A stretch of DNA of 51,461 bases, filler included, from Diploschistes diacapsis (lineage: Eukaryota): the NCBI GenBank assembly GCA_023645945.1. It is 3 parts of 3 records of this genome, joined end to end, with 100 filler letters (N's around TTAATTAATTAA, not from the genome) between each part and the next. Parts side by side here need not be neighbours in the genome. Positions count along the whole stretch, not along the records: positions 17,196 to 34,280 come from JALAIB010000471.1; 2 more parts are not named here. The stretch is one strand, 5' to 3'. Under the pieces are notes generated by a model, which did not search any database, was not told the DNA's origin, and was given only the letters and a program-made list of their open reading frames with translations. A program made the translations under genes and the position numbers. Of this stretch, positions 17,196-38,600 are shown in pieces (within the stretch, counting starts at the first letter, position 1; each line of letters starts with the position of its first letter).

Positions 17196-17225
17196 CAGGT
17201 TACATCCGCACTGCTTTATTCTTCG

Positions 17226-17226
17226 T

Positions 17227-17261
<35 letters not shown>
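17226..17261. repeat. (TG)n microsatellite
   Basis: Visible TG run with one interruption. Confidence 0.95.
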
Positions 17262-17264
<3 letters not shown>

Positions 17265-18221
17265 CCGGGCCGCGCCCCGAGCCGATCCACTGATTGGCCG
17301 TTTTCCATCAACGACCGCACTCAGCTGAAAGCGTGCGCGGACGCAAAAAATATTGGATGTTGGCCGGAATCGGCAATGGAAGGAAGAGGGGGGGGGGCCG
17401 CATTCTGGATTGAATGAATCCACAAGCAAATAATATCTTTGTGTAAATGAAAAATGGGGGTGTGTAACAATGAAAATTTGATTAATTTACCAAAGGAGGG
17501 TGGGAAGGCGGATTGCGCAGCGATTGCATTGCATTTACACATTGCAGGCCATGTGACTGTAACCCCCAACCCGCGCCACCTCCCCCCCCGTTTACCGGTC
17601 CTTTTGAGTTGGTATGCTTTTTGCAATGTGCGGTGGGTGTGGGTGTGTGTGGCACGAGTTGTTGGATCAAGGGAGACTACTGGTAACTATAAAAATACAA
17701 AAAGCATCTTTGAAGGGTTGAGGGTTGTGGCGAAGCTGAGCGATTTTTTCAGGGTTTTTTTTTTCTTTCTCTGTTTCGGCAATCCTACCCTATTCTCCGG
17801 TGCTCGGGACGCCTCGTACCCACACATTGGCTATGACTCCTGAAATAAGAATAAGTTACTGAAGTCAAAGTCATGCGTAAGTTAATCCCCAATGATTAGT
17901 GTGTCACATGTGGCTCGGGGTTTTTTTGAAGGCTGCTTAAATCCGATACAGCCGAGCATGACCCCTTAGGCTTGCCTGCTAAGTTGCCCGCTAAGTTGCC
18001 TCCTTGGTAGCACCCAGTATACGACTTGAAGGCACCGTATCCGATATAAGAAGCTACTCGTTCAGTTGGTAACAGGACTACTTGCCTGAGAACTGAACTT
18101 CAAGTTGTGGGAAATTCTTCCTTGGTAAACTTAAAGAGAGTTATTTTATATCAAAGCCGTATTCAGATAAGCGAAATCAACCACATATTTCCTGCTTGCT
18201 GCTGCTCTCAATCTAACAATC

Positions 18222-19407
18222 ATGCCGACCCAGGCGCTCTTCGACAAATATCCCCCCTTTCCTAACGACCTCCCCATTGCTGACCTTACCCGCGTTTCTT
18301 TCGCAAAGCTACTGGCCAAAGATGAAGCCGAGTCACAGAAGCTCTTTGACGCTTGCAGGGCATGGGGTTTCTTCCAGCTCGACTTTGGAGGCTGCCCGGA
18401 GGGGGATTCATTCCTTCACTTGGCGGAGAAGATGTTCGAACTCAACGAGGAAGTGAACGCGCTGGAGCAGGAGGAGCTGATGCGATATGCATACAAGCCT
18501 CCGCACTCTTTGTTCGGGTAAGCAAGCCTTTTCCTTGTCTTGCTGCCTGTGAGAGTTGTAGTCCGATCTTGCTTTGGCTGCGAAACTGTCAAATCTCGTA
18601 TAAGATTCCTAGCTCACTGTTCAAAGATACAAGCACGTCGGCAATCTCAAGATTGAGGATGGTCGGCCCGATCGCGTAGAGTTCTACAACGTCGGTCAGG
18701 ATGACATGACTGGTGTTTCAGCTCCACTGGCCAATCCCGAATGCATCGAAGCCCATCGAAAGGAGTTGAAGAGCTACCTAGAACAAGCACATTCCGTCGT
18801 TGGCGTGGTTTGTTCCGTCCTCGCCAAACAGTTGAACCTTCCACCCGGCACGCTTGACGCTCTGCAACCCTTGGACAAGCCGTCGGGAACAGCTTTGCGT
18901 CTTCTTCGCTATCTGCCTCAGCCAGCTGAGGATCGTCGGACCAGTCTGCTAGGGCATACGGATATTGGATCTCTGACGATTCTCTTCAACATCACAGGTG
19001 GTTTGCAGCTCCTGCCTCCTGGTGCAGACGCTTCGCAGGATTCGGATTGGAGGTACATCAAGCCCGCGGTAGGCTGTGCGATTATCAACCTCGGTGATGC
19101 CATGGTTGAGTGGAGTGCGGGCATTCTGAGAAGTAACATACACCGTGTCACGTACGCACCGGGAGACCAGGCGAAAGTACCGCGTTACAGCCACGCGTAT
19201 CTGCTCAGACCGGACGGCGATGCACCAATGAAGCGGCTCGCTGGTGGAGAAAGCTTGGTCCCTGAGCTCGAAGAAGGGGAGGAAGACAACCTGATGAACG
19301 CACGGGAATGGGAGGCGCACAAGGCAGTTGCGATCAGAGCTGGGAGGGACAATGCACGCAGCAGGGGCGGAAGAGAGCTCAAGGTGAAGCGAGAGATTGC
19401 CGTTTAG
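18222..19407 (+). CDS. 2-oxoglutarate/Fe(II)-dependent dioxygenase (DIOX_N + 2OG-FeII_Oxy); intron 18518-18626
   Basis: LFDACRAWGFFQL N-terminal motif, LRLLRY, HTD (HxD), NLGDAM, distal His in NIHRV, RYS 2OG-binding motif. Confidence 0.9.
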
Positions 19408-19664
19408 GTTTCCGAAGAGTAATCATTGCGAATTCTTGTGCCATCGAGAGCAAAATCTAACACGACCATGTAATTGTGAGAGCTCGCTGTAAGTTAGGTA
19501 TCTGTAAGTACTGAACGTTTAACCTCCTACATTCATATTCACATTCGCTCTACCTAGCTTGGTCCACCCACTCATGGGTGTCTTGATGGCTACTAAATTC
19601 ATGCATAGTGCACCAGCGACATATTCTTCGTAGTAGAGAGGTTTTACAACCCTATCAATGCGCT

Positions 19665-20314
19665 CGCTGCGTAAGTCCAGATATAGCTAACGCTTTTTCA
19701 GGGCCTTGGCAATAGACTAATCCAAATTAAGAAGTATATCAAAATATAATGCTCTTAGTAATTTCATCTCTTTTGAACATAGTCAAAAAGGTCTAAAATA
19801 TGGCCATTTCACGTTTTTAGAGGCTTGTTTTGAGGCGCCGTAGGGCCTTCATTATTTTAAATTTTTTGTTATATCTAAAAACAAAACGCGAGGCGCTTAG
19901 AGGAGTGGAAAAAGAGGGGAAGACATCAAAATACGGAAATAATAGTGGACGCTACGGCATTTAATATCAGCGTTTATCATTATCTAAATCGTAAAATTGA
20001 GGGCCTGAGAGCGTAGAAATAGGCGTCGTTGCCTATCCCCTACGCTTTATAGAGGCAGATACGTCGCCGGCGGCCTTTAAAGGCGCCGGATAGTCCCATT
20101 TTAGAGATTTAAAATGGAAATTTATCTACGCTGCGGATGCGTCGGTGGAGGGCCGTAAGGCTCTCCTCGACGCTTATCTACATTAGGACTTACGCAGCGT
20201 AGGCGACGTCTGCGGTTCTGTAGGCGGACGCTGCCTACACTTTCGGAGATGCTTCCCAAAGAGGTAAGCAGCGCTGCGCGCCGAGACATGAGCTAACTAC
20301 GATAGGACTTACGC
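19665..20314. mobile_element. Degenerate non-autonomous DNA transposon (MITE-like) relic
   Basis: CGCTGCGTAAGTCC (19665-19678) is the exact reverse complement of GGACTTACGCAGCG (20186-20199); GGACTTACGC recurs at 20305-20314; interior partly AT/TpA-rich with no ORF. Confidence 0.4.
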
Positions 20315-20734
20315 GGTGCATTTACAGTGTTGCTAAACCTCTCTAGTAAACTCAATGCAACATATCATAGCGCCAGCCTTATGGTACCTGGCTAGGCCAG
20401 CCTCGGTGCCCAAGACTAGAATGGGTACGGCCTTAGTCTCAACCAATTTTTCTGAAACTTCGCAAACTCGTACATGCGACTTTCAGTCTACTATATGGTG
20501 TTCCTTCAGGCTTAGGGGCTGGTTGATAGCGGCCTGTCCGAGGAGCCAGGTACATTCAGATTGCGGTGAGAAGCGATCATAAATTGAAGTAAAGAATATA
20601 TCGATCTAATCAATCTGTCTGAAATTGAAAGAGGAATTGGATCAATACTAAGCCAGCTTAGCAGGTCGCTTTTCCATCTTGGGAAATGAAAAAAAGATAC
20701 GAGAAACAGTGAAGCTGCTGCAACTTCACCGAAG

Positions 20735-22311
20735 ATGGGAGGGCCAGTGTCAGGGCTGGATGAGCTCGAACCCTTTCCTCCGCCATCAGATGATCACCCT
20801 AGGAGTCTCTTCGCAGACCCTCAATGCTCAGACTTGTCGCCAAATTGTCACAGTTCAAGGCCTTCCGACGGCCGTCCGCAACCTGTTTTTGGCAAGCCTA
20901 CATCCATGTCATCCCCTTTGGGCAGGCACGCAAAACACGCACACTTCACCAGCGGATCAAGCCGGCCATTCGGCGGTGGCACTCGTGGAAATTCTGCAGC
21001 TGCATCATCTCCCTTTGCTGTTCTCCAAGGCTCTGGACTATCTTTCGAAGGGTTTGACAACCTATCAAAAACACCAACGACAGTGGGGGCAGTGCCCAGC
21101 CCATCCGAAACAAAGGTTGGCAGAGAAGAGAGTAACCCCAGACCATCTTCTTCAGATATTAAGGCATCTTCGATCTCGACTAGTGCCGAAGTACCCCTCC
21201 CTAACGTCGAATCGAAAATTGCCTTCAATACGAAAGTCCCTGACGCTTACGGCCCGAGTACAATAATCCCTCCATTCAAAGATCGATGCTCTAGCAGCTT
21301 GTCCGGTGATGAACAACTCACTCCGCCAGACGATAAGATAAACGAAGCAGGGCTGGAAGAGACTGGTGGCGGAAATTTGGGTACTTTGGGCACATCTTAC
21401 GAGAATCCCAGTGTTCAAAGAGAAGGCTTGTTAGGCTCAGGATCCGCCTCTAGTCCGAAGATTCCCTCTGTGGCCTCGTCCGGCTGTGGTGATGTATGTC
21501 TCCAAATGAACACTTCAATGCCCGGCCACGTTCGTTCTAGTTTTGAGATGAGCCCCAGTCAATTGTTTCTACGTTTATTTCGACTGACGTTGTGCAGAAG
21601 GATGCATCCCCACTCGGTCAAGCAAAAGAAGAACCCAGGGATAGCTCCAATGACTTGAGCCGCTCACTTTCCAAGGAACATTATCGCAAAGACGAGATAG
21701 AATGGTATCGCAGTCCGCCACGACCTAAAGCAACCGGGTCATTGGCAGCTGCCCTTTGCCTAAGGTACATGGACTTTGCGTATCCGGAGCTTAGGCTACT
21801 GGTGGACCATATCGATTTGTTCAAGCATAACGAGCCATTTGTAGGAGCATTCGGTTCCGAAAAGGAAAGACTCTTTGCAAGAAAAATTCGCTCCACCACA
21901 GACGACGCAAGGAGGGCCGATGCCACGGTTGAACACATTAAATCAACCTCAATTGACGACGCAGCTGTCGTTATAGGAGCGAAAATTGCAAGACAGAAAC
22001 TTGAATATTATAACCAATGTTTGAGTACCTGGGTACTTTCCAAGCACGAGTGGATTGAGCACTACGAGAAGCTCAGCGCTAATATCCAAGCCTGTCCGCC
22101 CACCACCGCTTCAGAGGCGTTCACAACTCGCAAAGCTCTAGACGACTGGGAGGAACGCCATTTGGAGATCCTTGCCGATGACCTAAAAGCAAAGAAAGCG
22201 GAGTTGGAAACGTTCATCCAAGATATACGGAAGACTGCTACTTTTAATAAACCTCAGAGAAGGCCGATTGCTAAGCATTGGAGGCTACTTAGCGCATTTG
22301 ACACAATATAA
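20735..22311 (+). CDS. Uncharacterised protein (~490 aa): low-complexity S/P/G N-terminus plus helical C-terminal domain shared with 25036-26595; intron 21494-21597
   Basis: GTATGT donor, CTGAC branch and GCAG acceptor join two ORFs in frame; C-terminus aligns with the neighbouring paralogue (EIEWYR, HID..NEPF, LEYY..LSTWVLSK, LDDWE..HL). Confidence 0.75.
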
Positions 22312-22599
22312 TTGAGCATTTTGCTGGTGCTTTCGGGATCAACGTGGAGTGAAACAGCTGCTGAGATCAAGTGTTCTCAACTGAGATATGACTGCCCCAC
22401 AAGTAATAGTAAGTTCGAAGCAGTTTATAGCGCTGTGGTAAGTAATGTACAGCTCTTACTTTTCCTCTACAATGTTATTTTATGGGATGAGAAGATGCGA
22501 ATAAAGACGACGAAGCGCCCCCTGAGGGCAGCCACACAGTTGAGCGCATTTAATTGCAGGGTACTTGTAGGCGGATGACTTGATGGCTATTGTGTTACT

Positions 22600-23150
22600 A
22601 GCTCTCTTCACGTTCTGGTGTTCTGGCACTTGTTCTTGTCGTTAACCTGAATATGCCTGCATCGAAGCACAAATTATCGTTCATCCAAAGGTCTCTAAAC
22701 ACTTCGCATATCTCAATATAAGCACAAAACCACAAGCCTCTCCTTCCTGAGCATTCTGAGGTCCTCTCTCTCCCGGACGCCAACCCCTTCACCACTGCCA
22801 CAGCTCAAGCGCAATCTCATGTATCTCCATCACAGTGGTGCTGTGACTGGAAACCGCAGTTCGCACCGTAGTGCCTGCAGTGCCTCGAACTTCCACCCGA
22901 GGATCCTCCGCCCCCTTTGTTGCCGATGGGAGGAGAACTCTACCTTGGCGAGCCCGAGCAGTCAGTCTGATCTCATAGAAATCGTCAAGATCACGGGCTG
23001 CAAGGTAGTCCTCGAAGTCGAAATCGCAGGCTCGGAGACGGTCGAAGTGGTCTCGGGCGTAGAGGTCGGTTCGTGGCCACGGTGAGCCTGGACGCCGGCT
23101 ATCAAAACAAGTACGAAGCTCGTGGCTGCTAGAAGGGTTTCGGCATGCAT
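22600..23150 (-). pseudogene. Frameshifted small secreted prepro-protein; 3' end approximate
   Basis: Signal-peptide-like MHAETLLAATSFVLVLIAGVQA, then after a 1-nt shift DLYARD..LRACD..YLAARDLDD..LTAR repeats, then a Gly/Cys-rich frame with TGA stops. Confidence 0.5.
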
Positions 23151-25035
23151 CGTGGAGAGAGGAGTTGAGGCGTTGATGGCTAGGTAGTGGAGGCCTTGTA
23201 AGTGTGAGAAGGTGATGGTCTTTCACGGCCGGCACAAGCTGTCAGTTATATCGTAGTTAAGAAGAAGGATTGTATTATTCTGCAAGAGATGTCTGTAAGC
23301 GGATTATATACATTCTGTATGACTAATCATGTCCCCCTGCTCCTGCTCCTTCTCACACAAGCAGCCTCCTATACATCGTGACTCTGGCCCGAAGCCTCAC
23401 TGACGATTCAATGTCGGTTTAGCCGAACTTCCAAACAACGGCAGCGGGGTCAAATTGGTTCTCCGATTCATGGTCTGCCGTATAGCATTCATACAGAGCT
23501 GGTATGATGTCTTAACTACGGGTCCGAACCAGACTACTTATACGATCGTCGATATTTTAAGAGATCTGAATCTCACCTGAAACCACCAAAGTTAAACGTT
23601 TAAATTTAAAGCTGAACATCCACCTACATTCTACATTCCTCGCAGTTGAGTTATCTGATTCTCGCCCCAGATTGACCAATCAGCTAATGCTGACTGAAAT
23701 GACTCTGTCGTGAGGACTGCATATGTCAGAAGCTTGGTATTGTCAACCCTCCTGCAGACGTTGGAAGCATCCAGGTACCACAGCTTCATACTAATACCCT
23801 CGTACAGATCGATTTACAATGGTCACCGTAACTGGTGTTGACCAAGACGCTTAGTGCCAGTAGGGTTTTCAGCCCTGCGGATATAATGTAGCACCTTTGG
23901 CGTTTAGTGAGAGAGCATTAGATGATGTTTTGGTCCTGATGGCATCCAGCTCGGCAAACGCCCCAAATAGTCTGTTTCGACGTCTCTATCCTGCTCTCCC
24001 TGCTGTAAACTCGATATTGACCCATAACTTAACGAGTGAGTACAGCGCATAAGATAATAAGTCCTAACGGCACCATTTAGAGACTTCATCAGCAGAATTA
24101 TCGCAGCCCCTGTATTGGCCGGCAGACTAGAATGGGGGACGATGGAAACTGCTCTACCGCCACTGCCCTTGGCAACAAATCAACAATCATTGGCCTGTAT
24201 GCAAGTTCATCGTCACATCTTTTACGGCAGTGTTGGATCATTTAAATAGAGGATCCCAATGTTTCTCTATCGAAGAATCTCGGATCAATTTTGGCCAATG
24301 ATTGCTGGATCTGCGTGCAACTAATTAGCACCGATTCGACGACCTGACGCCGGGTTTATCTTATACTCGATCCGTAGGTGCCCATAGAGCCTAATTTCTA
24401 ACTCAATAGTCATGTTACGTGATGGCCCAGTGTGAGGTAAATCGTTGTGTTTCCTGAATAGCGTATTCCACACTTTTTCCACACGTATTTTGACAATGTT
24501 GTAGGATACACAGTAGGAATCGTGGTATCCCTTGATGGTACGTACGCCTTGAAGATGTGGGTCAGTATTGCTGAGCGTTCAGAAGGCTTCAAAGCCTAAA
24601 GGGCGCCAGTATAGTCCCTTGAATAAGAACTCACTATAGTATCGTTCAACGAGCAGAAGAAAATACGAGAAGGATCACGAAGCATCCCCCAAGGGCATTT
24701 ACTCTTTTTGCAGCCATGATGCGTTACTGTATGTATTATGTAGGATACCCGAGTTTGTCAGGGCGAAGTGCAGCGTACCTCTATGCCTGTAACCCTGTTC
24801 AACATTCAATGAGTTCCTCAATTTATTACTAGACTACCTGTCTCTCCACGTGAATCTTTACACTCTAGTATACTTTCAACACCTGGTCATTCTTTGGTGG
24901 TTTCAGGTGCTGACACTAGGATGAATATTCACCCATTACCTTCCTCTATTTAACTGCTTCCACTCAAATGCGTTCTTCATCAAAATCAGCATCAGTCGAA
25001 GATCTCGAGACGGTAGACAGTCTGGGCCATCGACC

Positions 25036-26595
25036 ATGGAGCGTTCAAACTCAGGCCCTGAAGCGGTGGATCCAGTATCAGTAAAAAGCAACCAAGACTC
25101 GGCATGGGGTGGAGATATGCCAATCGTTCAAGGATCGTCACAATCCGAACAACCAAATGAGGGCAGCAGCATTACTCTGGGGCCTGGAAACCCATCATTG
25201 AATACCATTACCTCAAGCCCCGTACCAAAGGCTGCATCCACAGCCAAGCAAGATCCTCAGTCTGCAGCTTCTGCTGAACCTACTAAGCCTCCCCAAAAGT
25301 CTACCACCTTACCCAACAATGAAAGCAGCACGGCCTCATCTACCGGTACCATTGCACCCTTATCGACCTTTGAAAAGACCATTTTGGGACTTCCTTCTGC
25401 TTGGAAGGGACCCTTTTCTGGTTGGGCGAAGCTTGGGTCTGCTTTCACAAAAGATTTGACGAATCCCGCCGGCCAGCTCAAATCCTTCGCAGGTGGAGTC
25501 CCTCCTCCCGGCGTGCCACCCTGCAATTCAAGCAAACTTGCATGAGAGAAAGATCGGCTGCTGGACAATCCTGCTTTTTGCCTTCAGAGTCGCGAAGTCA
25601 GGAGTATTGACTCTTCCGGTTCCCCTGGAGGCGAGCCCGTCGCTTTCTCAAGCAGAATACCAAAAGAGAGCTTGAATTTCAGTTTCTCTGCTCCCTTTCA
25701 TCAGAGTCGCCAGTTAAGCAATATTGGCCCCTCTAGTCTCCGGCCTTTACCTGGAAGCGAGCCCTCCGCCTTTTCAAGTACGTCGCCGAAAGAGAGCTTG
25801 CCTTTTTCTGCTCCAGCATCGGCGCTATGTCGGTGGGAACCTGGTCCAACAACCTTGGACTGTCACCATTTCTGCCCCTATGTCATTGGGGAAGCTTTCC
25901 AATCCATAAGCGCCAAGGAAGGCTTCTTAGGGTATTCCTTCGAGGAGCTCAGATTTGCCGACTACCAAGCGAACCCAGCTCTTGGGGCAGTCCCGGAGGA
26001 GGCCAATGGCCTGCAAAGGGATTGCTCCGCGGCTAGAGGGGAGATCACATGGTATCGTTGCAAGCCTGCCTTTGTTCGTGCATCTCCATTAGGCGACTCT
26101 TTTGGATTTGGCGTGAGCGACCGTGCTTTGCTGGAGTCTCTCCAATCGCTCGCAGCTCACATCGATAATTACGTGTCCAACGAACCATTCACGATCTTTT
26201 ATAGCATGGAGAGGGAAAGCACTTTGGCCGACAAGGTTCATGCGTCACAACTGGCTCTGGACAGAGTCTTACGGAAGGCGGCCGACAGGCTCTGCGATCC
26301 ACAGCTGGAGATCGAGCTCGCACGGACTGCGCTGGACTACTACAGCAACTTCTTGAGCACTTGGGCCGTTTCGAAAAACTTCTGGACCCGCCACTACGAC
26401 TCGCTCACCGACACCCTCATAGCCCAGGAACCCGCGGATATCTCCGAAATATGCCGCATTCGTATGGAACTGGATGAGTGGGAAGGGGGTCACTTGAACA
26501 AATTGGAGGATGAGTTGAAGAAGAAGAAGGAGGGTTTCCAGCTTGCAACGGCAGCTTTACAACGCGGAAATGCTGCCAATCCGCCCGCGCAATAA
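25036..26595 (+). CDS. Uncharacterised paralogue of 20735-22311 with a GLEBS-like motif; one in-frame TGA at 25543-25545 (possible pseudogene or recoding)
   Basis: ORFs 25036-25545 and 25672-26595 share a frame with an open interval between them, giving 520 codons with one internal stop; contains FQSISAKEGFLGYSFEELRFADYQAN and the shared C-terminal domain. Confidence 0.7.
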
Positions 26596-29071
26596 TCTAG
26601 GTCGCACTATGGGGCTGCGCTCCTTGGCGTGAACCAGGCCTAATAAGCGCGGAGCCCGGTATTCGGGTCTCGCAGCGAAACGACGAGTGGTAGCACGAAG
26701 AGTATCCGAAGTAATTGAGTACATCCGGCGACAGCTGGGACAGAGAGATGTGATGGGTGAAGCCCAGGAAGAGTCTTTCGACGTGGGTATTTCGATAAGC
26801 CCGATTCGAAGCTGCCGCTAGTGAAGATGGAAAAGGTATTGAGGGCAGAGACGATGCTGGGACTGGAGAGCATAACGCTCTGTTTATTCGATCAACGGTG
26901 GACGAACTCGCGGAGGAGGTGTTTTACGGAGATGCAGGATGATGGGAGAGATCGGACTTTGTACATGGGTGGGAAATGCCATGCGGATAGTGCCGAATTT
27001 TAAACTCCAAGTTCCCCACCCAAGGGATTAGTCGAGCGGGGGAACTGCAGTGGTATAAGCCGAACTGAAGTGCTTGCCTTCCCAAACCGATATTTCATGT
27101 AATCAAAACAATTTGGTCATAAATCTTATTACGAGACAATGTATGTAGCCAGAAAGCTACCCACGAAATCATGAAGTGTTTCCACTTAAGGCAATTTCCA
27201 CATTGTTTTTACAAGATGTAAGATGTGCGGGAACTCTGGACGGAGCGGAAGAACCAATAACCGATGGCCCCAATTTTATTTATGCGTATCTGCGAGAAGA
27301 CGCTGTAAGATGGGAACCACACTTCCCCGATCATCATCATCATCATCCTTTCCGGTAGACTTCCGGTTGTCAAAAGTTTTGTTGTGTCTGGTATTTAAAA
27401 AAACAGTTCATTTCTTCCGTTCCCCACTCAAAGACGTCCCCGCAAGCCCATAGGGTACCCGAGTGTTCACCGAAACCGTATTCTCAATATATGCGAATAT
27501 GAGATGGGATGCCCTACCCCTACCCTTGCTAGTGGATAAGATATAATCATCTTTTCTGCGGCTCTGCCACGGTTTCACACGATTCACGGAAAAAGCCTTG
27601 ACCAACCCGAAACTTCCGGATCTACGGGATTTAGATTAACTTCAATGGACTGGTGGGGGGGCTGGCCCGAGGGGAGGATGGAATTTGTTTGTGGTGGCGA
27701 CAGTGGGTAATCAACTCCACCAAGGAAACGAAAGTGGTTCAAAGACGAGACACAGCGGTAGCTAGCTCTTTGGGCGAAATTATCGTCCCATGTCGCTCAT
27801 CTTGAGTCTTTTTCAATTGGACCCTCGCTCGCACAAAACCGTGGTGGGGGTTTATCATCGTGGAATTCCGATAGCCTAGTAGTACAAAAGAAGTGTTGGC
27901 CCGGTGACGTGGCGCCCGTGGGTGTGTGTCCCTTTGATCTCACTATCTCATTTTGAGTGCCGTTCCTGCAGGTGGCCTATCGCTCGCTAGACTGCGTTCG
28001 ACCAGATACAGCCATGCTGCAGCTTGAACGGGAAAGGTGCGTGGCTGTTGGTCACGTTCGAGCGGTGATGATGTCGTCAGCGAGACGAGACAACTTCAAG
28101 GTTAAATTGAAGGCAATCAATCCCACCCGTTTGCTTGTTTGTTTGTCGCCCAAGGTCCTCCCCCCTCAGTTGTTTGGGTTGGGGGGCGGGGTTAACGGGG
28201 CAAGCAACAAACGCTCTTCTTCCCACGCAGGCCCATGTTCAAGTCTCCACCTTAGGAACCAGAGAATTTACAAACGGTCCAAAACTGCTGTAATGACTTG
28301 CTGAAGTACACAGAATGATGTTCACTACATACAAGCCCCTGGCATCATCCAGAGCAGAATGTTTGATGTGATGTGATGAGAGGGGGATGAGAGGGGGGTG
28401 AGAGGGAGCAAACGACGCGTCGTCGGCGCAGCGTGAAACATGGCCAGCCGGGACATGATTGGACCGAGGATGTAACAGGCCAATAGCACTCCATATCACG
28501 CTCTTAGGTCAGCGCTATGAAAACGCCCCCAAGCCCCTGAAGGGAAATCAAATCATTTCGTTTAAATGATTTCCCACCCAACAAAACAAACTGACTACAC
28601 ACTAACTAACTACCTGCTGGAAAAAGTGCACGAATGTTAGAAATGTACCCAACCCCCCCCTGCATGTAGAGCCCCAACTAGTGCGTGCCCAATATATTTT
28701 GTCCCCCCCCTAATCAACCAAAACCCTCTTCTACTTCTTTCTTATTTCTTCCCTACACGCTCTCTCTTCCTGCTTGCTTGCTTGCTTTGCTTGTGTTCGT
28801 TGTGAGTTGTCCAGTACATACCTTTTTTGCTTCTCTGCAAAGTCACTCTTTGATAGAGCAGTCGCTCGTTACATTCGTTCCCATCAGCAAGAGACTCGAT
28901 TTCTTCAGACCCCCCACCAAACAAAGCCACTCCTTTTTGCTCCTTCCGGCTGGTCCTCGAAACGAAACGAAACGCACAAGGGAAAAGAGAGATCTTTACT
29001 CATTCAAATACATCTCACAAAAACAAAAGTCTTCGGGCCTTATTGTACAGAGCTCTCTTACAATCATCACC

Positions 29072-30673
29072 ATGGTCAACTTCTCGGGCAGCGTCCTGTA
29101 CGCTCTCCTCGCAACCGCCGCCTCGGCCGAGCTCCGCCACGACCGTCGTCACCACCAACACAGGCGTAAGGCTCCGTGCACCACTGGCACTCTGGTCGGC
29201 GCTTCTTCCACTGCTCCGTATGCCATGAGCAACTCGACCACGATTGTCGGCCCCACCGGCACCGGCAACATCGGAACGACGACTGTCTCGGCCACCTCCA
29301 CCATGCTCTCAACCGTGACCGTTGTGCCACTTCCAGTCTCTTCCGGAGCTGGTTCCTCTCCCTCTTCAAGCGCAGCTGCCGGCGGTGGAAGCCCTGGTTC
29401 AGCCCCTGGCTCTTCTCCCTCGTCGAGCGCAGCCGCTGGCGCTGGAGTCCCGGGTAGCGGTGCAAGCGGCAGCGGCCAATGTGCTCCCGCCACCGTGACC
29501 GTTACTGCCCAGAACACGGTTACCGTCACCGCAGGTGCTGGCGGGGCCCCCGGGAGTCCTTCAAGCAGCCCTGCCGCCGCTTCCTCTCCAATCGCACCCA
29601 GCTCTGTGGCAGTCACCTCTTCGGCAGCTGCTGGCTCTGGCTCCCCCAAACCGCTGTCACCTTCGTCACACTCTTCGTGCGCACACCCTGTGTCTCGGGC
29701 ACACTCGTCGTCTGCCCAGGCTTCTTCTTCGGCTGCCGCCTCGGCCGCATCTTCATGGTCTGCTCAGGCCTCTTCGGCTGCTACCTCGGCTGCATCTTCA
29801 GCTGCCGCCGTCTCCACCGCTCAGTCTTCTGCTCCTGTTCAGCAGGCGGCAACCTCGACCTCGGCATCGAGCACCCCAACCAGCGCCGCCGCTGCTCCGC
29901 CAGCCGGTGGCAAGTGTGGTCTCGCCTACACTTCATCAGACCAGGTCGGCTCGTCCTCTCCATTCAACAGCGGTAACACGCCCTGGGGATACAACTGGTA
30001 CTACGAATCCATGGGTCTTCCCGAGGGTGTTGAATTCGTTCCATCTCTCCAGAAGCCAGAGTGGACCTCCAGCCTTGTTGCTGCTCTGCCCCAAGCTACC
30101 GGCGTCAAGTATATCAAGAGTATCAACGAGCCTGACATGTCTACCGGTTCCGGCGGAACTGCCATTTCCCCTGGTGATGCCGTCCAGCTCTACACTGGCA
30201 CTCTTAATGCCCTATCCAGCCAATACAAGATTGGTGCTCCCGCCGTCACCAGCTACAACACTACTTCCGGTCTCGCCGGCTTCGCCTCTGGCATTACATG
30301 GCTCCAGCAATTCCACGACGCTTGTGCCGGCAACTGCAACATTGGCTGGGTCGACCTCCACTGGTATGCCGACGGTCAGAACGGTGAGGCCGGCAACGCG
30401 CAAAAGCAGGCCAGCGACTTCCTCACCTACGTCGAGCAGGCTACCGCCGACGCTCAGGCTCTTTACGGTAGCGACATTGAGATCTGGATCACGGAGTTCA
30501 GCGCCTACCCGACTGCCGACACGGATCCTCAGATCAACGTCGACTTCTTGAAGGCCGTTCTACCCACGCTCGACAGCTCTGCCGTCACCCGCTACTCCTA
30601 CTTCATGGCCGAGTACCTTGAGTCTGGTTCGTCGTTGACCAGCGTCGGCTCCGCGCTCTTCTCCTCCTCCTGA
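29072..30673 (+). CDS. Secreted GH128 beta-1,3-glucanase-like protein (Asl1 / Glyco_hydro_cc) with long Ser/Thr/Ala/Pro linker
   Basis: Signal peptide MVNFSGSVLYALLATAASA; GKCGLAY, WGYNW, INEPD, LHWY, IWITEF, RYSYF motifs; upstream in-frame extension is UTR-like. Confidence 0.88.
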   Translation: MVNFSGSVLYALLATAASAELRHDRRHHQHRRKAPCTTGTLVGASSTAPYAMSNSTTIVGPTGTGNIGTTTVSATSTMLSTVTVVPLPVSSGAGSSPSSSAAAGGGSPGSAPGSSPSSSAAAGAGVPGSGASGSGQCAPATVTVTAQNTVTVTAGAGGAPGSPSSSPAAASSPIAPSSVAVTSSAAAGSGSPKPLSPSSHSSCAHPVSRAHSSSAQASSSAAASAASSWSAQASSAATSAASSAAAVSTAQSSAPVQQAATSTSASSTPTSAAAAPPAGGKCGLAYTSSDQVGSSSPFNSGNTPWGYNWYYESMGLPEGVEFVPSLQKPEWTSSLVAALPQATGVKYIKSINEPDMSTGSGGTAISPGDAVQLYTGTLNALSSQYKIGAPAVTSYNTTSGLAGFASGITWLQQFHDACAGNCNIGWVDLHWYADGQNGEAGNAQKQASDFLTYVEQATADAQALYGSDIEIWITEFSAYPTADTDPQINVDFLKAVLPTLDSSAVTRYSYFMAEYLESGSSLTSVGSALFSSS

Positions 30674-31689
30674 GTGGGACCTGATCACTCGAGGAAATCG
30701 CTATTGTGTTGTTTTTGTATTGTACATGATGTTAATCTTCGTCGGGCTATACCTGGAACTCTGGTATAGCTTGGAGCCTGTTTCGCATGTGAGTTGGAAA
30801 GCACAGACTTCTTTAGGGATAGGTTTTGCATGAGACGTGTTGGATATAGAAGGCAGACGGCTACGTATGATTGTACAATTAGCGTGCTAGTCATCTATCC
30901 GCTTTGAATATAAAGTTGTTACCCTTGCATAATGCTCCATATTGTGTATGATACGGGCGATCTTTTGTTTCATACCGAAGAAGAAGCGAGAAGCGCGAAC
31001 CACGTACAGCACAGCGCGTAGTATTTTTGCATCGGGCCTTGCGGAGTGATATTCTTCTTCACGTCAAGCAGTAATAGGTGGGCTTGCCTAGCCTAACTAA
31101 CACAGGTATTCTCTGGACTTCTTCTCGATGGAAGCTCCAGACGTACAACAATACAATGAGGGATCCACTAAATCCGATGGGCATCATCACTGCGCTGGCA
31201 CCGGGGGCAACGGTTGGGTGGATAGTGACGGGCCGCCACAGTAGCGTTAGGTCACTGCAGCCCCAGCCCCAGTGCTTGGCACGGGCAATCCCAGCCTCTC
31301 CCAACCTCACCCGTAGCCACCTCTATTCTGTATAGCATCATGGTTTTTGCTATACTACCAGCCTTCTGTAAAACGTCAAATCACGGCCCCTAGAAGGATA
31401 CGAGGCTCCATAGCTCAGAGAATAGAAAAGCGGTAACACGGTAGCGGATTCCTAAGTTTGCTTCCTCCCTCTTCCCATATCATCAATCTATCCGTGTGTG
31501 CTTGTGCTTGTGTTATCGCTCAGCATTGCGAGTAACTACACTTGATACTGTAGACAATACCATCATTCCACTCATATATCGCCCTTTGACTCATCCAACC
31601 GGTCTTTCATCTCTTTCGTGCTTCTTTGGAAGCACAACATTCCGCTACCTCTTTCCACCCTCCCCCCCCTACCTATCATCCCGTCCATC

Positions 31690-33626
31690 ATGATTCCTCG
31701 GTCACTGCCAGTTTGGCTTCTCGCCGCTGCAACATCGTTACAACCTGCATTTGCTCAGACGTCCACCAAGTGCAACCCGCTGCAACAAACTTGCCCGGCA
31801 GATCCAGCTTTGGGCACATCCACCACAATCGACTTTACGGCCGGCTCGTCCAGCCAGTTCAGCGAAAGCGGCAGTCCCCATCCCAGCTACAACTCGAACG
31901 GCGTCAATCTCGTCGTCGCCGAGTCTGGCAATTCGCCGACGTTGACGTCAGACTTCTACATGATGTTTGGGAACGTCCAAGTCACGATGAAGGCTGCTTC
32001 TGGAGTCGGTATAGTCAGCTCGATGGTGCTACAGTCGGACGACCTAGACGAAATCGATCTCGAGTGGCTTGGGGCAGACGGGAACCAAGTTCAGAGCAAC
32101 TACTTTGGCAAAGGCCAAACAACATCCTACAACCGAGGTGCCTTCCATAACAACCCTGGAAACCAAGACAGCTACCACACCTACACTGTGGACTGGACAT
32201 CGGAGCAAACCGTCTGGCAGATCGACGGCACAACCGTGCGAGCTCTCACACCCGCCTCGGCAGAAGCAGGCCAATACCCACAAACACCCATGCAGCTCAA
32301 GCTCGGTATCTGGAGCGGCGGCGACCCATCGAACCCACCCGGAACAATCCGTGCGTTCCTAGCATATCTCCCCCCCACTTTCCCTTAACATTGCTAACAA
32401 AACCGCAGAATGGGCCGGCGGCCAAACCCAATACAATCAAGGCCCCTTCACCATGTACGTCCAGTCCGTCAAGGCGACCGACTACAGCACCGGCACGCAA
32501 TACACCTACTCCGACAGCACGGGGAGCTGGCAGTCCATCCGCAGCACCGGCGGCACCGTCAACAGCGGCGGCAACACCGCCGCCTCCTCCGCCGCGGCCG
32601 CCGCGCCCTCTGTCACCGAGGTCTCCTCCGGCGCGCCTTCCCCCTTCGGCGGCACCCACCGCGGCTCCTCCTCCACCTTCGTCACGCCCAGCGTCTGGCC
32701 CTGGGTCGCCACCTCGACGCTCGCGACCTCGGTCCAGACGGCCGATCCCAGCGTGCCCTCGGGCTGGACCCTGAGCTCGTCCGGACACCTCGTACCGCTG
32801 AGCGCGGCACCTGTGAGTGAGCATTCCCCTTTTTGCGCCTCTATTTTTCGTGAACCCACCACAAAACCACAGTATATACTGACTCCCACGTGCTCCGCAG
32901 TCCACAGCCCCTCCCTCGCAACCCTCCTCATCCCCTGCGCCCTCACAGCCGCCTTCCTCGCCGGCTCCGGCCGCCTCCTCTTCTTCGCCTGAACCTTCGC
33001 CCTCTCCTGCGGCGGCTAGCGGCTACATCACAACCGTCGTCTACAACCAGCAGGGCTTCCGCACCACCCTCACCGAGCCCGCGGCCTGGACCACGGCCGC
33101 CAAATCTTACAACCAGCAGGGCTTCCCCGTGCATCCCACCGGCGTGGCAATCAACAAGCAGACGGACCCGACGAACGGCGAAAGCAACAAAAGCGACGAA
33201 AACGACGTTGATGACGAAGACGTGAGCCCCCGAGCGCCGCCAAACTCGCAGCTCAGCCCACCCACGGCGGGTGTTTCTTCGACAGCTGCTGCTGCTGCTA
33301 CTGCAACGACTCTGTCCACTGCGGCTTCCGCATCCGCCTCGGGTTCGGGTGCGGGTTCTTCGTCGCCGGCCAATACCGCTACCGCCGTGTCTGGAAGTTC
33401 CCCCTCCTCCTCCTCCTCTTCTTCTTTTTCTTCCTCCGTGACGTCGATCACGACGAGCACGACGATCGCCCCGCCGACGAGCCTGAACGCGACGCCCATG
33501 GCTATCCCGACGGCGATGGGGAGCGGCGCTGCCGCTGCTGCTGCTGGGGCTGGTGGAGCCGCAGCGAGGATGATGGGTGTCGGGGCCGGGTTGGCGGCTG
33601 TCGGGGTCGTGCGGCTGGTGCTTTGA
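31690..33626 (+). CDS. GH16 Crh-family chitin-glucan transglycosylase, GPI-anchored; intron 32351-32408, second intron 32813-32900 (long form, stop 33626) or 32817-32900 (short form, stop 32992)
   Basis: Signal peptide, CNPL...CPADPALG, catalytic DEIDLEW, QSNYFGKG, YPQTPM, GIWSGGD; Ser/Thr-rich stalk and hydrophobic C-terminus. Confidence 0.9.
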
Positions 33627-34076
33627 TCGGGGTGGGGCGGTGTGTGTTCGCTTTGCACCTGGGGGAACTGGGTTTTGGGTTTCCTTGGGAGCGTTCCGAG
33701 CTGTTTGTTTTGACCTGCATTGGCGGATACCGAGGGGCATAGCGAATGGGGAAAACTGGACTTCCAAAAAGGGGAGGGAGGGACATGCGCTATGATCTGG
33801 CATGAGGTATATAGCGCACGGGTTATGACAGATTTATGTTATTTGGTCCAGAAGTATCGACCGGGCGCCGGGAGGGGGATGTCTGGATAGCAAAGCAACT
33901 CACGGGCGCGCGTGAAAAGAGTAGATGGGAAGGGTACTTGCTTGCTTTCGCCATACTATATTATATTATACCGTACATAACATAACGATACATAAATCCC
34001 TACCTCGAAGAAAGCTTTCCCCCAAGTCTCGTTGAAATCGTTTGTCATGATTACATACATACATGTACATGAACGA

Positions 34077-34102
34077 ACACACACACACACACACACACAC
34101 AC
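34077..34102. repeat. (AC)n microsatellite
   Basis: Visible AC run. Confidence 0.95.
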
Positions 34103-34280
34103 AGTGCCCAACACGCGAAAAAGTCCGCCGCTCATGCCCAGCCACAGACCTCTCTCTCTCCCGAACCGTTGGCCCATAATTATATAACCATGGCGCGGGT
34201 CGAACCTGATATATATCGGGAAACGAGCATTTTACCACGCATATTGTTCATCACCCTTCAACCCCCGTTCTCCCCCTCAC

Positions 34281-34380
34281 NNNNNNNNNNNNNNNNNNNN
34301 NNNNNNNNNNNNNNNNNNNNNNNNTTAATTAATTAANNNNNNNNNNNNNNNNNNNNNNNNNNNNNNNNNNNNNNNNNNNN
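34281..34380. other. Assembly spacer with TTAATTAATTAA linker (34325-34336)
   Basis: Same 44N-linker-44N structure as the first spacer. Confidence 0.97.
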
Positions 34381-34837
34381 ACTTTAGAATTAAAGGCCTT
34401 AAACATACCTATAATAAAAAAACTTTATATAATATACGGAAATATATACTTAAATACATTTAAAATATCGATCAGGTCCTTTATGCGATAAAAATAATAA
34501 ATACAATTATTTCAAAAAAGAAATCACAGTAATATATTAAAAAATTAAAGATAGTAAGCTATCTTTATACCCCGGAAGGACGTTCTTTAGAATTAAAGAA
34601 GATCTTAAAGATAATGGATTGGTTTATTTCGAGAGATATCACGTAAGTTAAAGGATTTCTGGGAGTATGTATCTATTATCGTATTTGGATTAAGGATTTT
34701 GCCGTTATCGTTTAGTTTTTATATCAGTTACTAAGAAAGGATCAATCTTTTTTATAAGGTCTTTATTAGTAGTAGGTTATGGATATTTTTAAATTATTAT
34801 TTATTAGTGTTTTTATTTTGAAGTCGTTGGATTATAC
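34381..34837 (+). mobile_element. RIP-mutated Ty3/Gypsy retrotransposon reverse transcriptase/connection fragment
   Basis: Translates KKSQ*YIKKLKIVSYLYTPEGR...KIMDW...VKGFLGVCIYYRIWIKDFAVIV*FLYQLLRKDQ, matching the Gypsy RT thumb pattern (GFLG..YYR..I.DFA...PLY.LLRK); extremely AT/TpA rich. Confidence 0.85.
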
Positions 34838-35295
34838 TGTTACGATCCAAGGTACTAGTCGGTAGTACTTGGCACGCAACAGCTAGTCGGGCATTTCCCA
34901 ACCATTCCTTATATATAGTCCAATTAGGGTGACACGGGTCACGTGATGAGTAGAAGGTCTGAAAGACCATTCTACCCAGTCGTGAGTAAAAAGGAAGAAC
35001 GGTAGTTTTATTTATTTATTTATTTATTTTATTAAAAGAGCCGTTGGCTATATAAGAACGTCGTTATAATTTTTATAAATTCAGGACGTGTTTACTTTTA
35101 TAAATATTCTTAATTATTACTCGGGATCAATTTATATTCGTTACTTTTATTATTTAGAAAGCTTTTTCTCTAGAAACAATCTAAGATCTATAACTGTTCT
35201 ATCTTCTTCTCTTGCTTGCACTCCTCTTTTAAACGAGACCAAACCCACCTTGATCAATACCTCGTGTCTACCTTGTAGAGATAGAGATCATAACA
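34838..35295. mobile_element. Putative LTR (458 bp)
   Basis: Begins TGTTACGATC and ends GATCATAACA (10-bp terminal inverted repeat with one transition mismatch), TG...CA ends; interrupts the RT fragment. Confidence 0.65.
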
Positions 35296-35601
35296 ACATC
35301 GTGTATTTATTAAATATATTAACAAAAAAAATTTTTTGAAGTAAATAATAAAAAAATAAATAAACAAGAGAGGGTTTCCGAAGTACCTGATGCTCCATAT
35401 AAATTTATATGGTGCAGTAAGTACTCCCGGAAAATCCAACACATCTGTAAATTACAGGTGCTCCACAAGGCAGAATAACACTTCCCGATTAACGCGACAG
35501 CGCGCCTGAACGTGTAACCACTTTTCGTACTCCACATTTCACGGCAATAGGATAGAGAAAAACTGTTTTTGTCGACTAGATGCATGAAATCTCTGCGGAG
35601 T

Positions 35602-38600
35602 ATGTCTCAGACTGACGGCAACTTCAGCGGATTAGACGATGATGACTTGATGATTGCTGCCACTCAAGTTGAGTATGGATTCAGTCCTTCAGATGAACAG
35701 GCGTCTCCCCGCGCTCGTAAGCGCAGGCGATTGGACGGCCCAACAACGGGTGCTCACTTGGGCTCTCATGGAAGCGAAGATGTGCTGCAGCTTCATGAAA
35801 ATTCTCCTCAAAGCTCACAGAACATTTTCGTGACTCAAGATTCTAAGCGTGCGGAAGAAGCAAAGGAAGATGGCCAGCCTGCCACACTGGATCAGAAGGC
35901 GCAATTCAAACACAGAATACACATCCCCAAGAATGCCGAGTTACCTGATGATATATTCCGCACGCAGATCTCGAGATCCTCTGAGAGTCCATATCGAATA
36001 CGTGCAGGAATATGGCAGAAACGCAAGCCTCCTCCGACCCCAGAGGCCACAGATGAAGGGAATGGATCTTCTTATGAGCGGAGCATAGACGCAGAAGCTA
36101 TCGCACAAGCTCGAATCAAATACAAAGCTTCCGAAACCAAGGCTACGGATGGTAGAGCGCGAATGCAACACCCGGCCATATGCATCGAGGAAGAGTTAGC
36201 AGATTTACCGTCTGATGCCTTCTCGTCGCCAGACCGCGCGCAAGATGCAATTGAAATTCATTCTCAAAAAGAATACGAAGGAGAATGGCAGGATAATGTT
36301 GGATTAATACAAAGAGTAACTGCTCCTCACACAAATCTCCGCCAAACTACTCTTTTTGGCACACAAGCCCCGGCGTGCTCATCGCAGGTTCAATCGCAGT
36401 CAAACAGAAAACGCAATTGGCCTTTGGCCAACAAAGATGGGCCTCCTACACACCACAAGCTTGAGGGTGCTGCACTGCGGACATGGGTATATCCTACCAA
36501 TCTTGGATCGATCCGTGACTACCAGTTCAACATCGTTGCTCGTGGATTATATCACAATCTGCTCGTGGCTCTACCAACAGGTCTAGGGAAAACGTTCATC
36601 GCAGCTACTATTATGCTCAATTGGTTCCGATGGACGAAGGACTCTCAGATCGTCTTCGTTGCCCCGACCAAACCACTGGTGTCACAGCAGGTTGAAGCAT
36701 GTTTCAACATCGCTGGCATACCGAGATCTGCTACCACACTCTTGACAGGCAATACTCCACCGGGTATTAGAGCCGAGGAGTGGTCTAACAAGCGCGTCTT
36801 CTTCATGACACCTCAAACGATCGTCAATGATCTCAAGACGGGAATTTGCGATCCTAAGCGGATAGTGTTAGTGGTGGTAGATGAGGCTCATCGAGCAACG
36901 GGTAGCTACGCATATGTTGAAGTTGTTAAGTTCTTACGACGCTTCAACACAAGTTTTCGGGTCCTGGGGCTTACTGCCACTCCTGGCTCGAGCGTGGAGA
37001 GCGTTCAGGAAGTTATAGATGGACTGGGCATTTCTCGTGTTGAAATACGAACAGAAGAATCACTCGATATCCGCCAATATGTCCACCCAAGGAAAGTCGA
37101 AACAATTACATTTGAAAACTCCGATGATATAGTATGGATCATGGATAACTTTTCAAAGGTGCTCCAGCCTCTGGTTGACAAGCTTAGGGGCATGAATGCC
37201 TATTGGAGCAGAGATCCAATGACATTGACGGCGTATGGATGCATGCAGAATCGGCAAAGATGGATGGCATCTGATGCTGGGAGGAAGTCAAATATGGGGA
37301 TTAAGGGAATGGTCAACTCCATCTTCAATGTTCTTGCTAGTCTTGCGCACGCTATCGAGCTCCTGAAGTTCCATGGAATCGTTCCTTTCTATCACAAGCT
37401 CAAGACTTTCCAGCAAGAGCCGATGGGTGGAGGCGAAAAAGGCAGTAAGTACCGCAGACAGGTCACCGAGCACGCAAATTTCAAGCAGCTAATGGACCGC
37501 CTTAAACACTGGATTCTGAGGACCGATTTTATTGGTCATCCCAAGTTAGAATACTTGCAAGGAGTCATACTGGAGCATTTCATTTCAGTCAGCGAGGGAC
37601 GGAATGAGAACCCAAACATTTCTCCAGCTCGAACCAGGATCATGGTGTTTGCTCATTACCGAGACAGTGCTGAGGAGATTGTCCGGGTACTCAACCGGAA
37701 CAGCCCTATGATCCGTCCTCGAGTTTTCGTTGGTCAAGCGCATTCCAGTGGTTCTGAAGGGATGGATCAAAAGAAACAGCTCCAGGCTATCGAGGACTTT
37801 AAAGCGGGAAAATTCAACACTCTTGTAGCGACCTCAATTGGTGAAGAAGGTCTCGACATTGGAGAAGTCGACCTGATCGTCTGCTATGACGCATCTGCTT
37901 CGCCAATTCGAATGCTGCAGCGTATGGGACGGACAGGTAGAAAGCGTGCCGGTAATATCGTAGTACTCCTAATGAAAGGCAAGGAAGAATCGAGTTTCAT
38001 ACAGGCCAAGGACAATTATGAGAAGATGCAAAGCATGATCGCAGCTGGCACAAGGTTCACTTTTCACGACGGCTTGTCGCCACGTATCATTCCGCGAGAA
38101 GTACAACCTGTCGTTGACAAAAGAAGTGTTGATATTCCTATCGAGAACACTCAAGGGGAGCTTCCAGAACCCAAAAAGCGCGGAAGGCCCCCAAAGCGAC
38201 CACCGAAGAAGTTTCACATGCCCGATAATGTTCACACCGGCTTCACCAGAGCTTCTCACCTTGATGAGGGTAGCGAAAGCGAGGACCCGGCAAGATCGTC
38301 ACCAAGAACAAAACCACCGAGACCGAGAACCCCAACCCCTGAACCAATTCCACCCCTTGATAAAGTGCTGCTCAGCGCCGCGGAGCAGAAGATCTTAGAA
38401 CGCTCCTACCTACATATTTCCGGGGAAACCCCTGAGACTGTTGAATTTCCACGACTAGATGCCTTTCCCGCCATGCAACGTATTTCCAGGCCGACGGTGT
38501 TGCTGAAGCACGGCAAAGCCAGCGAGCGATTAGTCAATACTATGAAAGCCATAAGCCAGACAACAATGGAGACCATTGAACGTTGGAGGCAGCGATACGA

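Follow-up and report, generated by a model that had tools for sequence, protein, structure and literature searches.

The window analysed here is a 51,461-nucleotide stretch of DNA from assembly GCA_023645945.1 of Diploschistes diacapsis, made of three parts of three records joined end to end; positions 17,196 to 34,280 derive from JALAIB010000471.1. It is fungal nuclear DNA, with a gene content that includes Xrn1, ribosomal protein L4, topoisomerase I, a protein kinase, glycosyl hydrolases and an ATP synthase subunit. Our subject is gene B, a plus-strand gene that carries the core of a Gle2-binding sequence (GLEBS) of the Nup98/Nup116 type in front of a conserved helical domain. A tandem paralogue, gene A, lies upstream of it (Table 1).

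The motif is located in a stop-to-stop frame at 25546-26595 (+, frame +1; P0001, 349 amino acids (aa)) that has no ATG upstream of the motif. An in-frame TGA (25543-25545) splits this frame from an upstream frame-1 open reading frame (ORF) beginning at ATG 25036. The public product of gene B is KAI4150608.1 (P0017; 489 aa), entered as "MAG: hypothetical protein" from a metagenome-assembled genome (MAG) that bears the label Diploschistes diacapsis. Its model joins the two exons of Table 1 across a predicted intron, which is one among several in-frame GT..AG options. P0017 shares a 90% cluster with P0002, a 129-aa ORF-caller product that starts at an internal Met and lacks the motif. Frame 1 leads in codon score from about 24961 onward; exon 1 gave no Pfam match and showed no similarity to the N-termini of relatives. 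Further downstream, but still ahead of the motif, the disordered region holds an internal duplication that codes for EP.AFSS..PKESL.FS units; Tandem Repeats Finder returned 0 rows on gene B.

Table 1 Features of the gene A/gene B locus, in window positions.
Feature	Position	Strand	Description
Gene A (paralogue A; P0014 = KAI4150607.1, 433 aa)	20906..22311	+	About 3 kb upstream of gene B; intron 21494-21597
Gene B exon 1	25036..25497	+	N-terminal region, disordered, Ser/Pro-rich, begins MERSNSG; P0017 mapped to ATG 25036
Gene B predicted intron	25498..25587	+	90 nt, GTCCCT...CAG; deduced from P0017 (junction ...KSFAGG / SREVRS...); splicing would remove TGA 25543-25545
Gene B exon 2	25588..26595	+	Repeat region, GLEBS core, linker, helical domain; includes TAA stop 26593-26595
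In-frame internal duplication	25624..25805	+	Two 56-nt copies (25624-25679, 25750-25805), 75% identical, 126 nt apart
Nup98-type GLEBS core	25897..25974	+	FQSISAKEGFLGYSFEELRFADYQAN; P0017 residues 258-283; EE pair 25942-25947; profile-matched part 25897-25965
W-Y-R	26050..26058	+	Central part of another short conserved motif, E[IV]xW[YP]R..P, between GLEBS and domain
Conserved three-helix domain	26083..26580	+	Invariant W..SK..W...Y, P, R, WE, L; homologues at E 1e-25 to 7.5e-7
Post-stop same-frame stretch	26596..26643	+	15 codons plus stop, SRSHYGAALLGVNQA followed by the stop

The sequence-only reading, made without database searches, had placed a Nup98-type GLEBS motif with its EE pair at this position, and FQSISAKEGFLGYSFEELRFADYQAN is encoded exactly there. 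A phmmer search of the PDB with a 59-aa piece gave five matches at E<=10, four of them Nup98 GLEBS chains from Rae1 complexes (3mmy_B, 7byf_B, 4owr_B and 7vpg_B; E 0.30-0.38; aligned stretch QSISAKEGFLGYSFEELRFADYQAN). The EE pair and DYQAN of the motif align with these chains, FEELR standing opposite LEELR of 3mmy_B. In Nup98, E201 and E202, with which the EE pair aligns, are described as forming salt bridges to Rae1 R216 and R172 (PMC3783196). The Pfam family Nup98_GLEBS (PF21240) was the sole match of a 57-aa piece (13.3 bits, E 0.09) and the top match of a 35-aa piece (15.1 bits, E 0.024); the Pfam scan of the whole proteins P0001 and P0017 listed no PF21240 match. The recognisable core comprises 23-24 residues, and an upstream [FW]-x-P element (RWEPGPT, RFKPTVV, NWKPTVE) lines up by eye in the family alignments.

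Profiles built from relatives gave far stronger matches. A hidden Markov model (HMM 1) of 12 GLEBS copies from five other proteins, with the window excluded, was searched against 1570 six-frame ORFs and matched the gene B ORF at E=5.5e-12, the next ORF scoring E=1.6. A second model (HMM 2), restricted to the three multi-GLEBS proteins above the Pfam cut-off, matched it at E=2.2e-11 (next ORF 0.49), and both models align with the motif over HMM positions 17-40 of 48. These E-values are somewhat flattering, because the proteins behind both models were themselves retrieved by similarity to the gene B ORF. The EE pair is present in all 12 copies used for HMM 1.

An exhaustive phmmer search over 1.84 billion representative proteins (E<=0.001) returned 12 proteins, namely P0002 (the gene's own product), eight domain homologues (P0003-P0010) and three multi-GLEBS proteins (P0011-P0013). 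The eight homologues, mostly ORF-caller fragments, match the C-terminal half (E as in Table 1), and the domain was found in nine 50%-identity clusters. Longer public models in these clusters are P0014 (gene A, from the MAG with the same label as that of P0017), P0015 (447 aa) and P0016 (954 aa). P0015 and P0016 (MCJ1328518.1 and MCJ1328519.1) are, by locus tag, adjacent genes of Thelotrema lepadinum. Both named source species are lichen-forming members of the tribe Thelotremateae (Graphidaceae, Ostropales), and all four records (KAI4150608.1, KAI4150607.1, MCJ1328518.1 and MCJ1328519.1) are named "hypothetical protein", with no motif or domain in the record names. Word-indexed protein searches gave 0 matches for P0001 and 2 and 3 for two family alignments, all already in the family set; a JGI metagenome scan with the domain alignment matched 120 patterns, of which 0 were confirmed. 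As judged from these sequences, the family is small and fast-evolving, and all its named members come from Thelotremateae.

Family members share one module: a variable disordered N-terminus, the GLEBS core, a linker of 20-50 residues, E[IV]xW[YP]R..P, the helical domain and, in most members, a short hydrophobic C-terminal tail (AKHW+xLAALDxL). The core is present in four of the five members that reach far enough upstream (P0017, P0015, P0016 and P0003), P0014 being the exception; P0004, P0006, P0007 and P0010 are too short upstream to show it and were left out of this count. PF21240 matches upstream of the same domain in P0015 (E=3.9e-4, 20.8 bits) and P0016 (E=0.03, 14.8 bits), P0003 retains half a motif at its cut start (..QELRYADYRAGRG), and P0017 aligns with P0015 from motif through domain in a single colinear BLASTP alignment (E=1e-27).

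These results bear out the motif's assignment to the Nup98 type and its conservation before the same domain in another genus. The refuting outcome that had been named for the motif, its absence or lack of conservation in homologues, did not occur. The comparison with GLEBS profiles that had been proposed as a check came out in two parts, with strong matches to the HMMs from relatives but PF21240 scores under the family's own threshold. A short acidic and hydrophobic peptide that merely happens to look like GLEBS would fit the marginal single-sequence scores in PDB and Pfam (E 0.02-0.4), but this explanation is effectively refuted by the profile E-values (2e-11 to 5e-12, against 0.5-1.6 for the next ORF) together with the colinear homologue alignment, which finds the same motif in the same place in homologues of the other genus; we regard it as hardly credible. 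The motif is very probably a genuine GLEBS-derived sequence in a real, conserved family.

The three multi-GLEBS proteins stand apart from this family. P0011, P0012 and P0013, all JGI/IMG metagenome proteins, carry three to four tandem Nup98-type GLEBS copies without the helical domain and pass PF21240 (42-87 bits, E 1.6e-11 to 7.7e-25); P0013 has spacers of the phenylalanine-glycine (FG) type between copies. Canonical Nup98 proteins typically have one GLEBS each.

The helical domain had been called unrecognised, and so it is by Pfam, which matched no family to it in gene B or in the homologues. Gene B retains all invariant residues of the family. The motif had also been described as fused directly to the domain; this needs correction, as about 55 residues intervene, including the conserved W-[YP]-R motif found in P0017, P0014, P0015, P0016 and P0003. 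An AlphaFold2 model from the nine-row alignment predicts a disordered GLEBS region (predicted local distance difference test (pLDDT) <50) in which SFEELRFADYQ forms one short helix, followed at model residues 85-250 by three long helices after one shorter helix. Per 10-residue block, pLDDT is 80-97 over model residues 91-240 and 69 to 84 at the edges. The gene A model has the same fold plus a low-confidence tail helix.

Foldseek found nothing in the PDB at E<=0.001 for the domain model. In an all-against-representatives structure search (VIA-align), BAR, F-BAR or I-BAR domains took the top 9 rows and 24 of the top 26 (Z 9.1-12.0; 146-159 residues aligned; root-mean-square deviation 2.9-5.0 Å). 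Since the search tool advises caution for helical bundles below a Z of about 13, the resemblance is one of shape only. The predicted domain shares with BAR, F-BAR and I-BAR domains an elongated antiparallel three-helix unit, but differs from them in having no Pfam BAR match and no Foldseek match at that threshold; its helices are also shorter than those of classical BAR domains. ESM Atlas leads to Goodbye, DUF7708 and NACHT_N were rejected, their scores of 0.77-0.79 being at chance level and without Pfam support.

As the sequence-only reading had stated, the protein has neither a GLFG array nor an autoprotease domain: P0017 contains two FG dipeptides in 489 aa, both within the linker sequence SFGFG, and no Pfam family at E<=0.01, thus no FG-nucleoporin family and no detected autoproteolytic (peptidase S59) domain. 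Apart from Nup98_GLEBS, Pfam assigned none of the family members scanned to a nucleoporin family. These features of gene B agree with the further description of a non-nucleoporin carrier, but the label itself is not settled, because the relative P0016 carries FG repeats, with 10 FG dipeptides flanking the module on both sides, seven of them C-terminal. In P0015, three FG fall within a Gly-rich segment. The family might accordingly be read as a lineage-specific nucleoporin, an offshoot of Nup98/Nup145N in which the helical domain replaced the autoproteolytic pore-anchoring domain and which provides extra Gle2 docking at the pore. The repeats of P0016 and P0015 would fit such an origin, as would the tandem GLEBS copies of P0011-P0013, one with FG spacers, but the two linker-bound FG dipeptides of P0017 and the family-wide lack of nucleoporin Pfam families speak against it, and we think it rather unlikely.

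Our preferred reading is that gene B encodes a translated Nup98/Nup116-type Gle2-binding descendant with an adaptor or decoy role. Most likely, the gene is translated through the predicted intron, its product binds Gle2, and it acts as such an adaptor or decoy. The GLEBS core with its EE pair would dock atop the Gle2/Rae1 beta-propeller, as that of Nup98 does, and the helical domain could link Gle2 to something besides the pore's Nup82/Nup88 site, or may merely keep Gle2 soluble. The gene B protein would then either offer Gle2 a different anchor or compete for the pool of it that serves mRNA (and pre-60S) export. We give this reading as a whole a probability of about 0.55.

Several observations suggest that gene B is probably coding: the codon score of frame 1 on both sides of the TGA, an indel-free span, synonymous motif variants and the public eukaryotic model. 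In codon usage, frame 1 scores best between about 24961 and 26580; the score dips at 25441-25560, a stretch that overlaps the predicted intron, and falls after 26581. When contigs of two related strains were aligned over the region, the variants listed included 0 insertions or deletions (indels) across about 1.68 kb of gene B (24936-26613) and 10 indel rows outside it, all in 423 bp of flanks; substitution density is about equal inside and outside the span. Both strain variants within the motif (25953 and 25965) are synonymous.

Other observations weigh against this reading. Fragment scores of 13-15 bits compare with a PF21240 gathering cut-off of 27 bits, and of the 57-residue GLEBS only the C-terminal half is recognisable (PF21240 model positions 20-39 of 39). 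The core is translated only if the predicted intron, whose signals are weak, removes the TGA; its donor (GTCCCT) and branch region are poor next to the canonical GTATGT...CTGAC...CAG of the gene A intron. Strain differences in gene B comprise 13 synonymous changes, where 9.7 are expected, and 18 non-synonymous ones (P=0.135); in the helical domain the counts are 4 and 9, with 3.3 synonymous expected. Across tests, the synonymous excess between these close strains is not significant (P=0.12-0.49). The stop codon ends the gene B product before the family's C-terminal tail. Finally, the paralogue A protein lacks the core (no EELR..DY), and its BLASTP alignment to P0017 starts only past the motif, at D279.

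Part of this evidence would suit a gene in decay, in which gene B is a pseudogene or drifting towards one, the GLEBS core is inherited but no longer translated or used, and the public model splices around a nonsense mutation. The TGA in an intron with a poor donor and no CTRAC branch site, the near-neutral ratio of synonymous to non-synonymous differences and the motif-free P0002 as sole ORF-caller product all fit this picture, as does an end branch that is the second longest of nine tree rows (3.79; P0010 8.29). So does the 3' end, where a premature TAA removes the conserved tail and a remnant is still readable past the stop. The codons after the TAA, SRSHYGAALLGVNQA, equal the relatives' C-terminal tails in length and resemble AKHW+xLAALDxL loosely by eye; with their negative coding score and frame-breaking insertions in one related strain, they look like a decayed remnant of that tail. 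Because of this resemblance, gene B seems truncated by a premature, fairly recent stop. Decay of the whole gene is nevertheless at odds with the absence of listed indels from a span whose two flanks have them frequently, with the best codon score being held by frame 1 throughout, with the retention of every invariant domain residue and with a motif core intact apart from synonymous variants. We therefore consider a relic unlikely, and the reading of gene B as a translated Gle2-binding descendant is kept.

For gene A, tblastn of P0014 against the window is 100% identical over residues 1-196, the domain HMM matches ORF 21547-22308 at E=3.7e-92, the intron is canonical (GTATGT..CTGAC..CAG), and the W-Y-R motif, the helical domain and an intact tail are all retained. 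On comparison with its relatives, paralogue A has lost the GLEBS core. The two genes thus hold complementary parts, A a tail without the motif and B a motif without the tail. An adjacent pair of family genes also occurs in Thelotrema lepadinum. In the domain tree (nine rows), none of the six inner branches is well supported and only the two Thelotrema copies pair (91/88), which does not settle the orthology of the tandem pairs.

A more speculative extension, which we hold to be improbable, is that the tandem pair forms a subfunctionalised two-part device. Gene B would dock Gle2 and gene A would supply the tail; their BAR-shaped domains would pair, parking Gle2 off the pore (for example at a membrane). 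These lichen fungi would thereby have a switch, perhaps used under stress, on the export of mRNA and pre-60S particles that depends on Gle2. If true, this would be the first known case of a Rae1/Gle2-type GLEBS acting outside the Nup98 family. When the helical domain was co-folded with a second copy of itself, the score was 0.00, which gives no answer either way.

More generally, with a conserved Nup98-type GLEBS on another scaffold, a host protein would be able to recruit the Gle2 propeller to other places or to titrate it. The same Rae1-Nup98 node is exploited by viruses, an effect that overexpression of the motif mimics (PMC2133102). The family also offers a natural example of a short linear motif that moved onto a new domain and was later lost from one of two tandem copies. 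Weak points of the case are the obscure, narrow and hard-to-culture lineage and the signs of decay in gene B.

Elsewhere in the window, a sharply AT-rich block at 34200-35400 (GC content 0.21-0.36, against about 0.5 elsewhere) lies just upstream of a DEAD/Helicase_C ORF (35551-39108, 1185 aa). It is adjoined by a GC-rich segment at 33000-33600 (0.61-0.67), where long ORFs overlap on both strands with no Pfam matches. The Xrn1 5'-3' exoribonuclease at 1498-5843 (-) is split across two overlapping long ORFs, 4113-5843 and 1498-4143; presumably this is due to an intron or frame change, and the gene looks ordinary.

Among known systems, the closest are the GLEBS motifs of Nup98, Nup116 and Nup145N (PF21240, 3MMY). 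There, GLEBS anchors Gle2/Rae1 to Nup116/Nup98 by a hairpin that sits atop the propeller, its EE pair forming bridges to two arginines (PMC3783196). In Chaetomium thermophilum, also of the Pezizomycotina, Gle2 is reported to bind the GLEBS of Nup145N, and the pair binds single-stranded RNA (bioRxiv 10.1101/2021.10.26.465790). A precedent for a decoy effect comes from overexpression of a GLEBS-like motif by itself, which drives RAE1 off the nuclear envelope and stops the export of poly(A)+ RNA (PMC2133102). A scan of 22 long ORFs of the window turned up no WD40 gene.

The sequence-only reading had named this GLEBS carrier as its best candidate for an undescribed system. GLEBS carriers that are not nucleoporins are, as such, already known: BuGZ is one and binds Bub3, in Neurospora as well (PMC9203020). 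For the Rae1/Gle2 type, the titles and abstract openings of the best-ranked GLEBS literature place the motif only in Nup98-family nucleoporins, with none on another scaffold and nothing on lichen fungi; the non-pore carriers that this literature describes (Bub1, BubR1 and BuGZ) are Bub3 binders. Gene B might accordingly bind Bub3 rather than Gle2, the family being a BuGZ-like Bub3 partner with a role at the spindle checkpoint or in transcription. The WD40 propellers of Rae1 and Bub3 are homologous (PMC2172680), and a GLEBS with an essential EE pair mediates Bub3 binding in Bub1, BubR1 and BuGZ. When the family profile was searched against the PDB (E<=1), however, eight of the 11 matches were Nup98 chains and none a Bub1 or Mad3 chain, with the reservation that short motifs can escape such searches. 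Pfam, too, gave only Nup98_GLEBS for the motif-bearing proteins and found no zinc finger, TPR or kinase domain. A Bub3 partner is thus a doubtful alternative to the Gle2-binding protein that we favour.

Set against these systems, gene B shares with Nup98, Nup116 and Nup145N the core Q-S-I-[ST]-A...S-[FL]-E-E-L-R-[LF]-x-D-Y-Q/S-A/G, the EE pair and the disordered setting. It differs from them in showing only the C-terminal 23-24 of 57 residues at a score below the cut-off, and in having a three-helix domain instead of a GLFG array and an autoproteolytic pore-anchoring domain. BuGZ (ZNF207), Bub1 and BubR1/Mad3 provide the precedent for an EE-dependent GLEBS on a non-pore protein, in filamentous fungi as well, that stabilises or targets a WD40 partner (PMC9203020). 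Their motifs bind Bub3 and stand beside zinc fingers or TPR and kinase domains, whereas that of gene B is of the Nup98 type and its protein has none of those domains.

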